Origin: a virus
Taxonomy: Duplodnaviria > Caudoviricetes
Direction: 5' to 3' (one strand)
Length of the DNA: 25,367 nt
IMG/VR virus record: IMGVR_UViG_3300017653_000011
Coordinates: 1-25,367 of that record
This document shows, piece after piece, positions 623 to 16,860 of the stretch (position 1 is its first letter; each line of letters opens with the position of its first letter). The translations under genes and the position numbers were made by a program. The notes beneath the pieces are model-generated. The model was not told the origin of the DNA. It searched no databases and saw nothing but the letters and a program-made list of their open reading frames with translations.

Positions 623-964
623 ATGATCGCCGACTTCAAAACTCTGCAGACACTCGCTGGCGCCAAGAAGCCAGGCGCGGTGAAGGCATGGCTGGCCCGC
701 AACCGCATCAAGTACTTTATTGACAGCAAGGGTCATCCGTCCACTACCCTCTCCGCCCTTGATCACGCGCTACAGCGCCGTGGTCAATCGATCACCGAAC
801 CAAATTTCGATTTGCCAACATGGGACAGCTCACCTGCGGAATCTCCATCCCCGGCGTCTACGAGAAGGACGGCCGTTACTACAAGGTCATCAAAAACAAG
901 TGGCACCCTCTCACGCGGATCGATGAAGGGACCAACGTCCTCTTCCGAGCCCTCCACGAGCTAG
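623..964 (+). CDS. DUF4224-like small DNA-binding protein / probable excisionase (RDF)
   Basis: LQTLAGAKKPGAVKAWLARNRIKYFIDSKGHP...EPNFD pattern; immediately upstream of, and overlapping, the integrase. Confidence 0.65.
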   Translation: MIADFKTLQTLAGAKKPGAVKAWLARNRIKYFIDSKGHPSTTLSALDHALQRRGQSITEPNFDLPTWDSSPAESPSPASTRRTAVTTRSSKTSGTLSRGSMKGPTSSSEPSTS

Positions 965-1740
965 ACCCGCTCAAGCCTAGCACAGTCGGCGAGCTCCTGA
1001 ACCTCTACCGTGCCGTTGGGATGGACCATCTGGCGCCCGCGTCTAAAGAGGATTACCTGAACATCCTCAAGCGGCTGGATCACCACTTCGGGCACATGCC
1101 ACTCGGGTCACTGAAGACGAGCCACATCGCGCACTTCAAAGAGGTTCGCCGGCGCAAAGGCCGTGGCGGGGTGCGCGCGAACCGGGAAGTCGCCGTGCTC
1201 TCGGCTGCATTCGAGCTTGGCCTCCGCGAAATGGTGGTCGAGGTGAATCCTTGCCGCGGCAGCGCTCGCAACCGGGAAAGCCCGAAGCGACGCGTGGTCA
1301 CTGACGAGGAATTCTTGGATGTATTTGAGCGCTCCAATGAGCCGTTCCAGGACCTGATCGCCGCGGCCTATCTCTCGGGCGCCAGGCAGACCGATATCAT
1401 CTCCTGGAAGCGCTCAGAGCACCTGACGCCGAAAGGCATCGACTATGTCGAGAGCAAGACCGGCAAGCCCCACCTGAAAGAGTGGTCGAAGGCCCTGCAC
1501 TTCTTCGTCGAACGGGCCGCGGTTCGATTCCCAGATGCGGACCTTGTCTTCACAAACACTCGAGGCGAGCCGTGGACCACGTCCGGCATCGCGAGCCAGT
1601 TGGCGCGCCTCAAGTCGCCCTGGTGCTTCAAGGATCTGAGGGCGAAGGCGCAGACTGATGCTAAGCATTCGGTGCTGGGCCACAATGCCGTGATGGAGGC
1701 GGTCTACCGGAAGAAGCTCATCACGCAACCGGTGCGGTAA
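820..1740 (+). CDS. int: Tyrosine recombinase / phage integrase
   Basis: Catalytic motifs YLSGARQTDI (R), SKTG (K), FKDLRAKA (K in place of H in HxxR), LGH and the downstream Tyr (AVY); ANREVAVLS...NPC core-binding motif; adjacent to a tRNA-derived att core. Confidence 0.95.
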   Translation: MGQLTCGISIPGVYEKDGRYYKVIKNKWHPLTRIDEGTNVLFRALHELDPLKPSTVGELLNLYRAVGMDHLAPASKEDYLNILKRLDHHFGHMPLGSLKTSHIAHFKEVRRRKGRGGVRANREVAVLSAAFELGLREMVVEVNPCRGSARNRESPKRRVVTDEEFLDVFERSNEPFQDLIAAAYLSGARQTDIISWKRSEHLTPKGIDYVESKTGKPHLKEWSKALHFFVERAAVRFPDADLVFTNTRGEPWTTSGIASQLARLKSPWCFKDLRAKAQTDAKHSVLGHNAVMEAVYRKKLITQPVR

Positions 1741-1936
1741 CTTAGAGAGTACTTGGCTTTTCTTAGAGGATTTGTGGTAGATTCGTCGGTAATTAGAGGC
1801 AGGGGCGTTGGACTGTTAATCCGTTGGTCGCTGGTTCGAGTCCGGCCCGGGGAGCCATCCTTAGACGCCTTCGTCTCTAAGACACCCAATAGTTTCTGGC
1901 TGAAAAACGCCGGAAAACAACAGCGGTCTTAGAGGG
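1741..1936. repeat. TTAGAG-type repeats flanking the att core (putative integrase arm-type sites)
   Basis: CTTAGAGA 1741, TCTTAGAGGA 1761, TTAGAGGC 1793, CTTAGACG 1860, inverted TCTCTAAGA 1874-1882, TCTTAGAGGG 1927. Confidence 0.7.
1810..1857 (+). mobile_element. attP: Attachment-site core (probable attP): 3' portion of tRNA-Asn(GTT)
   Basis: GGA-CTGTTAA-TCC anticodon arm, T-arm GCTGG-TTCGAGT-CCGGC, acceptor 3' strand CCGGGGA-G-CCA. No 5' acceptor strand (TCCCCGG) or D-arm upstream. Phage genes lie on both sides. Confidence 0.88.
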
Positions 1937-8712: not shown

Positions 8713-9926
8713 TTCAGGATTCCGAGCGGATCGTCTTGGGCTGCGTCTCGCGGATGAATGGTCATTTCATCGATCGGCCCAGCAGCACGGCCGCCCATTT
8801 GGCGCATGCCTTCCATCGCCTGCAACCGAGCGCGACGCTTCTGCTCAATGGTAGCCCGCGAATCGCCGGGCACGGGGAAGTAAGTCTTGATCTCCTGCGC
8901 CATTTCCTCGGGAGAGATCACAGCGCCAGACTCTTTGCGCAGCTTGGCGCGCACCCAATCTGCGGCAGCCTGATAGTATTGCTGTCCTTCGTCGCTGAGT
9001 ATCTGGTTGGCAATGCCTGTGCTCACAGGCCCCCCGCTCATCATGCGCTGTGCGGCCATGTAGTCCGGCATGGAGGGCGTATAGCCGCCAAGCAGCCCTT
9101 CTGCGGCCTCCATTCGGCCGAGATAGTTCGCCGACGTGCGCTCGCCCTCGGTTGGTGCGCCTTGCGTTGATTTCGGGGGAGCCTTCTGACCAGTCGGGCG
9201 AATTTCTCCGGTGCGCTGGTCAAGCACGCCATAGGTGCCGTCCCCAAGAGGGATAGAAGAGAACGATGGCGTGACGTTCTGAGGATTGCGCGCCTGAATG
9301 TATTCCAGCACGGTCAACGGCTGCTTACCTGCCTGCTGCATCTGCTGCGCATAGAGGTTGTATTCCTGAAGCATCGCTGCCTGTGCACCGCCCTGAGCCG
9401 TGAAAGGCTGCTTTCCTGCCGCCTGCGAACGCGCGACGAGCACTGGCTTTCCATCGGGACCGATCACCGTCTCGAGCGGCTCCGACTCCTGCGGCCGGAA
9501 CTGGCTCGCAAACATCTGCGCCATGACGGGATTGCTCTGCAGCGCTCGCGTGCCTTCAGGCGCCATCGCAAGTTCCATTGCTTCGTTGCGATCCGGAATC
9601 CGTTGCGGCGTGGTTTCGACCATCTGGAGCTCACCGGGCGACTGGGCGTTGAACTCAGCCACTTCGACGTTCGCTGGATTCGTGCCACCCATCAGGGAAC
9701 GCGCCAACTTTTGCGCATGTTCAGTGCCACGCTTCTCTGCCGCTGCTTCATCCTTCTCTGCATCTCGCATCATCTTTGTGCCTACGAGGGCACTTGCGAT
9801 CTGTGCGATACCTTGCAGGTGGGAACCGACCGGTGCTCCTGACATCGATTGACCCATGAGCGCTTCTGCCAGTCGACGGCGACGCTCCAATGATTCTGGC
9901 GTGTACTGACCGCTATGCACAGGCAT
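8709..9926 (-). CDS. DNA ejection / internal virion protein (middle)
   Basis: RRRRLAEALM...QGIAQIASALVG N-terminus, Q/A/M-rich, C-terminal LRKESGAVIS...YFPVPGDS motif; position in the late operon. Confidence 0.7.
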   Translation of the reverse strand: MPVHSGQYTPESLERRRRLAEALMGQSMSGAPVGSHLQGIAQIASALVGTKMMRDAEKDEAAAEKRGTEHAQKLARSLMGGTNPANVEVAEFNAQSPGELQMVETTPQRIPDRNEAMELAMAPEGTRALQSNPVMAQMFASQFRPQESEPLETVIGPDGKPVLVARSQAAGKQPFTAQGGAQAAMLQEYNLYAQQMQQAGKQPLTVLEYIQARNPQNVTPSFSSIPLGDGTYGVLDQRTGEIRPTGQKAPPKSTQGAPTEGERTSANYLGRMEAAEGLLGGYTPSMPDYMAAQRMMSGGPVSTGIANQILSDEGQQYYQAAADWVRAKLRKESGAVISPEEMAQEIKTYFPVPGDSRATIEQKRRARLQAMEGMRQMGGRAAGPIDEMTIHPRDAAQDDPLGILK

Positions 9927-10623
9927 GGAATGCCCTCTCTAGAGGTTCCATATCGGTTGAGACTGCATCTCTGATGCTCGCGAGTCGGCGAATGACTTCG
10001 GATCTACGGCCCTCTGGAAGATTGCGTATCCGCTCGACATTCTCATCGAGGTAAGCCGTGCAATCCCAGCAGTCCCGTGAGGTTAGCTCCGAATCATAGT
10101 GCGCAGGGATTTCAGCGCCGACATCTTTTAGGTACTTGAACACCTGCTCTGCACTCCAGCTCTCGATTGGGAAGATGTATTCGATTCCATCCTCAGTGTG
10201 GCCGCTCGATAGGCCGTTTGTACGTCGCTCGTCCTTGCGTTGACCGCGGATGATTAGCTTAATACCGCGGCGTTTCATCTCGGCCTGCATCGGCAACCAG
10301 ATATTCTCGGCGCAGCACTGCCAAGCGCTCTGCAACTTGTAAGTCTGTGCAGACTTTACGACCCCACGGCCCATCGGCGTGTAACTCAGAGGCACCACAT
10401 CGCAAGGGTAACCATTACGCTCAATCTGGCCAGGCTGGTTCGAGGAAATTTCCAGGAAATGCGGCAGCCGATCACGCCACTTTCGCATGAGTTCAACTAT
10501 TTCTGGATACGCTGCGCCTGTGTTTACCCAACACACCAGGATCTCATCCCAATGCTCTCGATAAAGATAAAGACATGCCAGCGAGTCCTTACCGCCGCTG
10601 AAGTGAAGCGCAGTCGAGATCAT
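9913..10623 (-). CDS. PAPS/APS-reductase-family (PP-loop) protein, probable Fe-S
   Basis: FSGGKDSLACL, VNTG, QCC, IRGQRKDE, FPIESWSAEQVFKYL, DCWDCT; lacks the CysH C-terminal ECGLH. Confidence 0.9.
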   Translation of the reverse strand: MISTALHFSGGKDSLACLYLYREHWDEILVCWVNTGAAYPEIVELMRKWRDRLPHFLEISSNQPGQIERNGYPCDVVPLSYTPMGRGVVKSAQTYKLQSAWQCCAENIWLPMQAEMKRRGIKLIIRGQRKDERRTNGLSSGHTEDGIEYIFPIESWSAEQVFKYLKDVGAEIPAHYDSELTSRDCWDCTAYLDENVERIRNLPEGRRSEVIRRLASIRDAVSTDMEPLERAFHACA

Positions 10624-14783: not shown

Positions 14784-15359
14784 CTATGCCGCCTTTTCTT
14801 TGGCGGCCATCAAGATGGCGATCTGTTCTTTCAGTTCCTTCAGTTCAGCGGCCTGCTCCTGGATGGTCCGCTCGAGAGCGTGGAACTTCTTGCCCTTCTC
14901 GGCACCCTCCAGGAACTGCTGCGCCTTCTTGCGCATCTCGCCGCCGAATTGCAGGTTGCCGGCTGCGGTGTCCGACAGGTTCGCAAGCTGTTGTACGGTG
15001 GTGATGCTCCACGCGCGCAAGGTGGCGACGATGACCGGGTTGTCGGGATAAAGCAGTTCCAGCGGCGTGCCATCGGCGGCCTGCGACTTCTTCTGCAGAT
15101 ACGCCTGCCACTTTGCCGGCCAGCGCTGTTTGTCCAGTTCCTTCACCGGGCGGTCGACGATGTCCTTCTCGCCAGGCTGGATGATCTTCACGAAATCCTT
15201 CTCGACAAAATGCGGTCGGCCAGTGGCCTTGGACTGAAACTCGTCCTGAACCGCGCGCTTGTAGAATGCGACGATCAGCTTGTCGTCGGAACCGAGCTGA
15301 AGTGAGCCATCGGGGTTGATGCCGCTGGCTACAGCGGCTGGGATTTCCGAATCGAACAT
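14784..15359 (-). CDS. Conserved phage head-region hypothetical protein
   Basis: ATG 15359 with GAGG RBS (MFDSEIP...); FVKIIQPG, GTPLE, ITTVQQLANLSD, C-terminal coiled coil. The track's longer start runs through the structured RNA element. Confidence 0.75.
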   Translation of the reverse strand: MFDSEIPAAVASGINPDGSLQLGSDDKLIVAFYKRAVQDEFQSKATGRPHFVEKDFVKIIQPGEKDIVDRPVKELDKQRWPAKWQAYLQKKSQAADGTPLELLYPDNPVIVATLRAWSITTVQQLANLSDTAAGNLQFGGEMRKKAQQFLEGAEKGKKFHALERTIQEQAAELKELKEQIAILMAAKEKAA

Positions 15360-15385
15360 TGGAACCTCTTTGGGGTTGAGAGAAA

Positions 15386-15523
15386 TTGACGCGGGCCGGG
15401 CGCTACTCCGGCGAGGAGCCGAGGTGGGAGTCTGGAACTTGTCCAGGGCCACTACTGTCGGGGGTTAATTGCCTCTTTAGGCTCCAACCGTTAGCGTGTC
15501 TGCATTCCACGCCGCCGCGTCAA
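15386..15523 (-). ncRNA. tRNA-shaped structured RNA element (uncharacterised)
   Basis: 9-bp closing stem TTGACGCGG/CCGCGTCAA, 2-nt linker, hairpin GCGTG/CACGC, long arm GGAGCC..GAGG/CCTC.GGCTCC with inner CTGGA/TCCAG, then GCCGG-AGTAGCGC-CCGGC stacked on the 3' strand. Confidence 0.65.
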
Positions 15524-15528
15524 AACTG

Positions 15529-15846
15529 TTACAGCGGGCTCGTCGTCTTCTTCACCCAACCACTCTCACCAGCCGAGAAAGCAGTCGTATTGGTATACGT
15601 GCCGCCCGAGGCCGCGGTGATGTGGAAGTTGGCATTGATCGTCACCGCCGTCTGATTAGCCGTAACCGGCACGTCCGCGACCACGAACACCCACGTGGAG
15701 TTGTCCGTGCCGAGAACGGGAGTACCCAGCGCAAAAGGCGGATCCGGCGTGAGCGGGAAGCTCGAATTCGACGCCGCCGGATAGCGATCATCGAAGTTCA
15801 CGCCGAGCGTGTTGGAAGTGCTGTACGGACCGTATGCATTGGCCAT
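15529..15846 (-). CDS. Capsid decoration/cement-type protein
   Basis: FALGTPVLGTDNSTWVFV motif; AGGAG RBS; directly after the capsid gene. Confidence 0.7.
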   Translation of the reverse strand: MANAYGPYSTSNTLGVNFDDRYPAASNSSFPLTPDPPFALGTPVLGTDNSTWVFVVADVPVTANQTAVTINANFHITAASGGTYTNTTAFSAGESGWVKKTTSPL

Positions 15847-15858
15847 GGTGGTCTCTCC

Positions 15859-16860
15859 TTAAGAGTTGAACAGCACGCCCTGCATACGGCGGTTGCTGAT
15901 GGTGAGGTTGCCCGCCCAGCCCTGCAGCTTCACCACTGCGTCTTGGTTGACGCTGTAGCGATCCGGATTCAGCGGGGTGAAGTTCCGCGAGCGATGTGGG
16001 CGATACTGGATGTACTTCGTGTTCAAGAAATACATCGTGCTGGCCGGCGCACCACCGAGCGGGATCGGATCCGAGCTGTAGCCCTGGAAGCCGCCGTCGA
16101 GCACGACATCGGCGTCCATGTACTTCAGGTTCATGAATCCGCCTTCGGCGAGCTTGGCGTTGGTGATCCGCTGCAGCGGCTGCAGGCTCTCGTTGTAGGC
16201 GAGCCATGCATTGTTGTCCGCCACCAGCAGATCAGCTCGGTCGGTGCCGCGAACCAGCTGCACCCAGATCTGATCCATGTAGCGGCGGATGTTGGCGCTC
16301 GTCATCGCAGCGCCGCCGTTCGTCACAGCGGAGAAGGCGATGTTGCGCCAGAACTGCCAAGTGGAGGCGTCGATGCCGCCGACCGTGCCCGTTGCGGGAG
16401 AATCGGAGATCAGCAGCTGCAAGCCGCCGATTTCCTTCGGCTGAGAGCCGTCGGAGTAGACGCCCTGAGCGATGAGCGAGGTCAGCGTGTTCTCCGCGTT
16501 CTTCACGCGGCCCTCGATGAGATCGATCATCTGCTCTTCGCCAGCGTTCTGCAGCTCTTCCAAACCCGAGATGCTGACGGCCACAGCCGCCTGGCGAATC
16601 GGGAAGGTTGCCGCAGTGAAAATCTGGCTCGGAGCGATGTTGATCACCTCGTAGCCCGAGTACCACATCGCTGTCTGATTCAGTGCGTACTCGAGTTCCT
16701 GCCAGATCTCGCGACCACCGGAGAACGGCTTTGCATTGCCGCGCTCCTTCAGGCGCATCAAGAGAGCGTTGTTACGAGTGACGTTGTCGGCGGCCTTCTT
16801 CGAACGGTTTTCCAGCGTGGTCGCGACAATGTCACCAATTGCGGGATTGGGATAAGCCAT
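15859..16860 (-). CDS. Major capsid protein
   Basis: 333 aa; ATTLENRSKKAADNVTRNNALL, SGGREI, WYSGYE, GGIDAST...FWRN, WAGNLTISNRRMQGVL; strongest codon bias in the window; follows the scaffold gene. Confidence 0.92.
   Translation of the reverse strand: MAYPNPAIGDIVATTLENRSKKAADNVTRNNALLMRLKERGNAKPFSGGREIWQELEYALNQTAMWYSGYEVINIAPSQIFTAATFPIRQAAVAVSISGLEELQNAGEEQMIDLIEGRVKNAENTLTSLIAQGVYSDGSQPKEIGGLQLLISDSPATGTVGGIDASTWQFWRNIAFSAVTNGGAAMTSANIRRYMDQIWVQLVRGTDRADLLVADNNAWLAYNESLQPLQRITNAKLAEGGFMNLKYMDADVVLDGGFQGYSSDPIPLGGAPASTMYFLNTKYIQYRPHRSRNFTPLNPDRYSVNQDAVVKLQGWAGNLTISNRRMQGVLFNS

Follow-up and report, generated by a model that had tools for sequence, protein, structure and literature searches.

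A tRNA-shaped RNA shell around exchangeable inserts in an apparently uncatalogued family of phage elements

The stretch of phage DNA analyzed here (25,367 nucleotides, hereafter the window) carries one copy of a family of RNA elements that is widespread in phages and apparently uncatalogued. Its members share a paired shell on a defined strand, conserved loops that are not those of tRNAs, and a variable, replaceable cargo, and they have no fixed neighbor gene. The shell has the geometry of a tRNA, i.e., 7+5 bp of acceptor-like and T-like stem, a 2-nt linker, and a D-like arm, without tRNA sequence. The interpretation that we favor, and to which we would give an even chance, is that the shell yields a defined and protected RNA, either on its own or cut from an operon, whose exchangeable cargo acts in trans on a protein of the host or of a rival phage through its shape.

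These 25 kb come from a temperate tailed phage. An excisionase and an integrase are encoded at the left end of the window, and the minus strand has the gene order terminase, portal, probable scaffold, and major capsid protein, after which come tail genes and structural genes. Behind the integrase lies a 3′ fragment of a tRNA-Asn(GTT) that is flanked by phage genes on either side (window 820-1857, plus strand) and has the appearance of an intact attP; the contig is therefore likely a free phage that integrates at tRNA-Asn. Another observation is a PAPS-reductase-family gene (phrog_424; 9913-10623, minus strand) within the virion gene run. The major capsid protein (15859-16860, minus strand; PHROG match phrog_9953) is 45-53% identical to the capsids of Mx8, Mx9, BUCT555, and ppBjS10J-1. 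Its gene is directly followed by a gene of 105 aa without PHROG match (15529-15846, minus strand), the homologs of which also come after the capsid gene in relatives and the product of which is, from this gene position, likely a head-associated protein. Next in the late operon is a gene of 191 aa (14784-15359, minus strand; phrog_20268) that starts at ATG 15359 behind an AGAGG at 15369-15365 and has homologs at 45 of 80 capsid loci.

Between these two genes lies the element, which runs from 15523 to 15386 on the minus (mRNA) strand. It starts 5 nt past the TAA of the 105-aa gene, ends with its stem 26 nt before the ATG of the 191-aa gene, and occupies the only large gap (15360-15528) in the gene run from the terminase (22866) down to 6832. 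The original prediction of a closed fold on the mRNA strand that begins 5 nt after a stop codon and fills this gap was thus verified for strand, position, and gap. The acceptor-like stem is formed by 7 nt at 15515-15521, with G15521 as the predicted mature 5′ end, and by a 3′ strand at 15388-15394 that is not followed by an encoded CCA. The longer outer stem that had been proposed does form, but its conserved part comprises only these 7 bp: TT at 15522-15523 and AA at 15387-15386 add a weaker two-pair extension, typical of operon-embedded copies and predicted to be present in the precursor only, in which the outermost T-A pair has a probability of 0.42. The stem is followed by a CG linker (15513-15514) equivalent to tRNA positions 8-9, which is CG in 211/224 members of the family. 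The D-like arm (15494-15512) has a 5-bp stem, with double-sided changes in the family, and a 9-nt loop, GAATGCAGA (consensus GAAAGCAGA). The T-like arm (15395-15412) combines a 5-bp stem, in which all five pairs vary double-sided in the family, with an 8-nt loop, AGTAGCGC (consensus NKUAGCGN), that is not TTCRA. Outer stem, linker, and both arms fold as had been claimed, with pair probabilities of 0.92-1.0 apart from that outermost pair, and the element indeed has no TTCGA, anticodon loop, or CCA, with ARAGORN and Rfam silent over it.

In place of an anticodon arm, the shell encloses a cargo of 81 nt (15413-15493). The single arm of about 70 nt initially drawn here is suboptimal: the insert prefers two predicted arms (15489-15463 and 15461-15419) at -22.7 kcal/mol, and the one-arm fold lies 2 kcal/mol higher at -20.7 kcal/mol. 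The insert is no more stable than its shuffles (z -0.88), and the fold of the whole element on its own is just modestly beyond chance (z -2.22, 2/200 shuffles); we accept this fold as real because of the family covariation and the model match described below. The plus strand folds as well (z -1.95) and was rejected as the functional strand by tRNA co-orientation and promoter position (see below). Translation from a GTG at 15452 through the element, which would have argued against an RNA, was also rejected: this GTG has no Shine-Dalgarno sequence and ATG 15359 has one, and in 45 relatives no tblastn match begins before residue 8 of the protein read from ATG 15359. A search for an intrinsic terminator at the window element found none, and three DNA sequencing runs held no variant across it.

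The first homolog surfaced as a weak 27-nt match in phage POI1126, where a full element lies between two tRNA genes. Exact arm-motif scans returned about 410 (D arm) and about 510 (T arm) stretches of IMG/VR and about 140 stretches of GTDB, of which 120, 121, and 120, respectively, entered our sample. A descriptor run over 444 loci and the window gave 285 matches, which are at least 231 distinct elements, and none in reversed sequence; after seven low-scoring elements had been dropped, 224 members were retained for later counts. The descriptor itself requires pairing, and the count was therefore redone without the acceptor requirement. The T arm was then present in 113 of 144 distinct D-arm matches; among the remaining 31 are matches by chance, variants of the T loop, and a single CRISPR spacer. 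A spacer containing the family's D arm was seen in a Lichenihabitans assembly (L391 2997-3032), within repeats that we take to resemble type I-C.

Among the 113 members not selected for it, acceptor pairs 1-7 are Watson-Crick in 102-113, and the stem often extends beyond 7 bp (pair 8 in 85/113, pair 9 in 66/113). Mutual information across 187 representatives reaches 1.1-1.9 bits at six acceptor pairs; shuffles do not exceed 0.15 and off-register pairings 0.19. In an alignment of 56 members with short inserts, 95.1% of cells pair (slid controls: 33-44%), and 17 of 19 pairs show double-sided changes, so the covariation in homologs that had been proposed as a check of the fold is strong. A covariance model built from this alignment with the window excluded (R1) matches exactly 15386-15523 on the minus strand with 75.4 bits and also finds phages POI1126, Persinger, PotUPM1, D14H, and Orimi01. 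In Orimi01 and PotUPM1 (L542 3993-4118 and L543 3993-4197), the element overlaps the starts of annotated hypothetical CDSs, which are probably mis-called. Transposon-like terminal repeats were considered and rejected as an account of the paired ends, as 119 different stem sequences among 187 members speak against a fixed recognition sequence.

Rfam, a search that had also been proposed at the outset, has no match over the window element nor over the elements of three further sets of 20, 20, and 9 loci. A literature search with subscription journals mostly outside its coverage found no description of the family, and the family motif did not occur in full texts or in seven files of Fremin 2023 (PMC10690425), which may not hold sequences.

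The loops of the shell remain nearly invariant over loci of 37-72% GC. The D loop equals the consensus GAAAGCAGA in 202/224 members, with the variant of the window present in two. The UAGCG positions of the 8-nt T loop are kept in 142-146 of 146 members found through their D arm, with one mismatch allowed by the descriptor. Seen against the tRNA model (RF00005), the family has the 7-bp acceptor stem, the 5-bp T stem, and a D arm, and lacks the anticodon arm with its 7-nt loop, the TTCRA T loop, G18G19, and U8, with C at position 8 instead. The final base of the insert is A in 196/224 members and C in the window copy. An encoded CCA occurs at any single offset in at most 9/224 members, compared with 44/59 real tRNAs of the same loci.

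The D arm of the family resembles that of leucine tRNA, yet similarity was weak when the arms were aligned directly to 114 real tRNAs, so tRNA-Leu is at most a conceivable ancestor. As a separate observation, the T-like arm opens with 13 nt (15412-15400, minus strand) that resemble an ordinary tRNA 5′ start, i.e., 7 nt followed by TAGC, and TAGC occupies positions 8-11 or 9-12 in 45/107 tRNAs of the loci; the T-like arm may be derived from the start of a neighboring tRNA. D and T loop both contain a GC dinucleotide, and these might conceivably dock into an elbow-like surface, a loop-loop contact that shows no covariation because both loops are nearly invariant. Neither inserts nor flanks are enriched in CGCUA, the sequence with which the UAGCG loop could pair.

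In stark contrast to the shell, the inserts range from 32 to 270 nt and fall into 187 clusters among 224 members, with 174 of the 187 being singletons. They differ at homologous loci, and the idea of a scaffold with a variable payload arm is thereby supported. For example, the shells of L130 and L144 are identical and their flanks nearly so, yet their inserts measure 157 and 63 nt and are 31% identical. Among 24 element pairs with homologous flanks, the insert family differs in 12 of the 21 with one flank matched, while the three pairs with both flanks homologous at the BLAST cut-off each share the same insert family. Cargo might be exchanged by recombination between the conserved arms. Some cargoes form subfamilies with conserved cores of their own, several of them across distant phages. 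Such cores, like the canonical T-arm motif of certain inserts (see below), are RNA-like traits of the cargo and favor the reading that it is functional. One such subfamily of 16 members (L095, L109, L134, L136, L137, L142, L177, L185, L197, L201, L219, L299, L350, L376, L381, and L403) has conserved ends of its own on either side of a second variable region and is thus a nested scaffold; five members scanned had no Rfam match. For the insert of the window, a pattern scan of metagenomes gave no independent homolog, as among 95 stretches only L526 contains this element, in identical form, and is probably the source contig. E. coli genomes gave no match to this cargo, and a cargo-specific pattern occurred in one of 151 genomes of a Ramlibacter family sample, namely the query genome itself.

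The contrast between shell and cargo could also mean that the shell alone matters, i.e., that it mimics a tRNA elbow and titrates a conserved host factor (RNase P, or a nuclease or sensor of tRNAs) around a near-neutral insert. The constancy of the loops across the GC range would fit this, as would the length range of the inserts and their folding, which on average is no better than that of the flanks (mean z -0.58 for both) and which also weighs against our favored reading. In addition, a canonical T-arm motif is found in 10/187 inserts versus 1 and 1 in controls, and some inserts look like captured pieces of tRNAs. However, the loops are unlike the real tRNA loops that a host tRNA mimic would be expected to retain, anticodon nucleases would find no anticodon loop as a decoy, and several cargo cores are conserved across distant phages. 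We therefore regard a shell-only mimic as unlikely. A different decoy, directed at CsrA, was rejected because ANGGA is under-represented in the inserts (85 versus 107.7, sd 10.8).

C4 antisense RNA of phages P1 and P7, the counterpart of which in P4 is the CI RNA, has fixed target loops. By analogy, the elements could be processed antisense RNAs that use the loops of their cargo to bind short targets in mRNAs of phage or host. C4 is likewise an RNA of temperate phages and a substrate of RNase P according to PMC11143913, and many copies of the family lie in early or immunity regions. Against this, none of 23 inserts had exact matches in its own genome above shuffles, a test with 7-9-nt seeds and host targets below its reach, and the best own-genome match of the window's insert is 10 nt. 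Moreover, no Rfam C4-clan match overlaps any element scanned, and the insert of the family, compared with the fixed loops of C4, is freely replaced. Antisense pairing thus appears improbable to us, and the reading of a shape-dependent cargo acting in trans is the one that we follow.

Several features point to the 5′ end of such an RNA. A sigma-70 -10 hexamer lies exactly 12 nt before the 7-bp stem in 16/169 representatives, against a background of 0.62 per position and a maximum of 8 at any position in 1000 shuffles. Given standard sigma-70 spacing, a -10 box at this position makes the first stem base +1 (equivalent to 15521 in the window), which argues strongly that the working RNA begins at the first base of the 7-bp stem. 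Four more copies from Ramlibacter with diverged flanks have -10-like hexamers 13-14 nt upstream. An extra outer (-1) pair is present in 7/21 promoter-led copies versus 121/148 copies without promoter (Fisher p 1.1e-5). Two loci, L117 and L191, are complete promoter-element-terminator units without ORF, of which L117 matches a unit in Pseudomonas phage Persinger; promoter and terminator occur together in only these many, i.e., 2/169 copies, and a terminator follows the element in 12/169 compared with 4 in the control. Genes for tRNAs lie within 1.5 kb at 26/136 loci and within 300 nt at 21/136, and they are co-oriented with the element 68 to 1. The existence of a discrete RNA, as originally predicted, is therefore supported indirectly, by promoter position, the two units without ORF, and tRNA co-orientation.

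The window copy has no -10 box at -12, and the same 5′ end (G15521) would thus need cleavage; we consider it likely that its RNA would be released by processing, with RNase P as the candidate enzyme. According to PMC11143913, RNase P places its cut by a distance of 12 bp from the T loop, cleaves minihelices, and prefers CCA, while non-native T loops lower its efficiency and shift the site. The T loop of the family, which is not TTCRA, and the lack of an encoded CCA thus speak against RNase P. The 7+5 bp of the shell equal this 12-bp distance, so a cut at the first base of the stem is expected, and stems of 8-9 bp could shift or hinder it.

The genomic contexts of the family are diverse. No dedicated protein partner emerged, as any neighbor family is found at no more than 5/136 loci and any shared family in no more than 9/24 carrier genomes. 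Among 50 chosen carriers, the model has one match in 39 and two or three in 11, some of which are halves of one long element. Near 26 GTDB copies, phage hallmark genes are present at 13 (by reading) and housekeeping genes at two. Two cases deserve mention in their own right. In L326 (3386-5966, minus strand), genes for an OLD-type TOPRIM protein and a UvrD helicase, a pair that we take to be Gabija-like, directly precede an element and share its strand. The other case is a subfamily in which one cargo is conserved (L363, L398, L402, and L606-L609); it comes from Ramlibacter and a sample of this genus, with near full-length matches in 6/101 genomes of the genus sample and -10-like hexamers at 13-14 nt before the element. 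Its member L363 sits among housekeeping genes, and this subfamily is possibly a host-adopted copy.

An element specific to capsid loci was rejected, as one of 80 capsid relatives carries one, antisense and upstream of the gene in scaffold position. Among 45 relatives with the downstream gene, the slot of the window copy holds an element in 0/45 and a terminator in 26/45 (17 distinct sequences), and the window copy therefore appears as an accessory insertion that replaced a terminator. The proposal that the element sets capsid-versus-tail stoichiometry accordingly fails as the family's purpose, given this one carrier in 80 and the diverse contexts, while a local effect is plausible: the window copy may step down late expression, which cannot explain the family.

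A broader version of this local effect would be that the elements punctuate or stabilize mRNAs in cis, with the shell as a cut site or 5′ cap structure that lowers downstream expression and the insert as tolerated filler. We see this as possible, though doubtful. The terminator in the same slot of relatives, with none in the window, is in its favor, as are the ATG that follows 26 nt past the stem and the finding of a Shine-Dalgarno sequence and ATG within 100 nt downstream of 41/169 copies versus 20 in the control. However, stand-alone promoter-element-terminator units exist, other copies are wedged a few nt from tRNA genes, and the copy in L018 is antisense to a late operon. Conserved cargo subfamilies would also be superfluous for a cut site, and 79/80 capsid relatives have no element nearby. 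We thus keep to the reading of a released RNA with a trans-acting cargo.

The architecture of the family is of the type of RNA1 and RNA2 of phage T5 and of species 1 RNA of T4, as judged from PMC9697503 and PMC12685909, while homology with them was not found. The two T5 RNAs are annotated as “tRNA-like stable RNA with unknown functions” (AY543070) and share with the family an acceptor stem, a D arm, a large folded insert that replaces anticodon and variable arms, and a T arm; the D loop of RNA1 even has a similar GGAA...AGAC frame. However, the T5 RNAs have a canonical TTCRA loop where the family has its 8-nt UAGCG loop and C8-G9, and they lie in a large tRNA cluster, whereas 23 of the 24 carrier genomes examined have 0-1 tRNA genes. 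Searched with model R1 up to an E value of 5, the T5 region gave no match.

Species 1 and 2 RNAs of T4 (rnaC and rnaD) are stable, non-decoding RNAs of 139 and 119 nt, detected by Northern blotting as late RNAs of unknown function (PMC9697503). T4 rnaC likewise ends in a T arm and an acceptor-like stem, but its T loop is canonical and a D arm like that of the family is missing; model R1 had no match in the T4 tRNA region and shows no homology to rnaC or rnaD. We also observed that in the rnaC-rnaD region (L323 1909-2172), rnaC contains GAGTAGCG twice, the same word as in the T-like arm of the family. The 5′ hairpin of rnaD is complementary to this word, with a predicted duplex of -16.2 kcal/mol, and the two T4 RNAs might therefore form a pair. 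No Rfam C4-clan match and no own-genome target (among exact matches of 23 inserts) link the family to C4.

Allo-tRNAs and irregular tRNA polycistrons resemble the family as non-canonical tRNA-like genes of soil bacteria and phages, some of them non-translating, but allo-tRNAs and tRNA-Sec have an 8/4, 9/3, or 8/5 branch and an anticodon where the family has 7/5 and none (PMC5389517 and PMC7609411). The family motifs are absent from one allo-tRNA/polycistron supplement. The element is also not a tmRNA, as GCCA end, T loop, tag ORF, and Rfam or ARAGORN matches are all missing. YrlA, a bacterial Y RNA (RF02553) whose partner gene is Ro60/Rsr, was rejected since no scanned element matches its model and no partner protein is shared. 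Engineered tRNA scaffolds carry foreign RNA in place of the anticodon arm and keep a true tRNA elbow and CCA, whereas the family is a natural shell with a loop consensus of its own.

Taken as a working model, a conserved phage family of this kind would present a constant tRNA-shaped shell around an exchangeable insert, and host tRNA-processing enzymes would release the RNA from a late transcript. Copies led by a promoter would be transcribed from the first stem base onward, and in operon-embedded copies such as that of the window, RNase P would cut at that same base. An exonuclease or RNase Z would then set the 3′ end by trimming back to the stem. The free RNA is predicted to be a stable carrier in trans whose folded cargo binds or distracts an RNA-binding protein of the host or a rival phage, and the rapid turnover of cargo might reflect conflict with host defenses. 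As a side effect in the window, the late mRNA would be split between head genes and downstream genes. More tentatively, and well short of an even chance, the family could be a natural modular system with which temperate phages deliver RNA: a dedicated non-tRNA shell, bearing an elbow code of its own, that is placed in any operon or driven from its own promoter and refilled by recombination with hundreds of folded effectors such as anti-defense decoys or aptamers, one of them taken over by bacterial chromosomes.

In annotation, the function of the tRNA-like stable RNAs from T4 and T5 is still given as unknown. The family described here supplies natural variants by the hundreds, in which the shell is sharply delimited, the 5′ end predicted, and the cargo replaceable, and cultured carriers exist, including the compact promoter-RNA-terminator unit of Pseudomonas phage Persinger. 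This combination makes the role of such RNAs directly testable, i.e., shell versus cargo and cis versus trans. The shell could also serve as a non-tRNA scaffold for RNA expression. If the cargoes are indeed RNA effectors against host defense, protein-based annotation would be overlooking a large class of accessory phage genes that is still unread.
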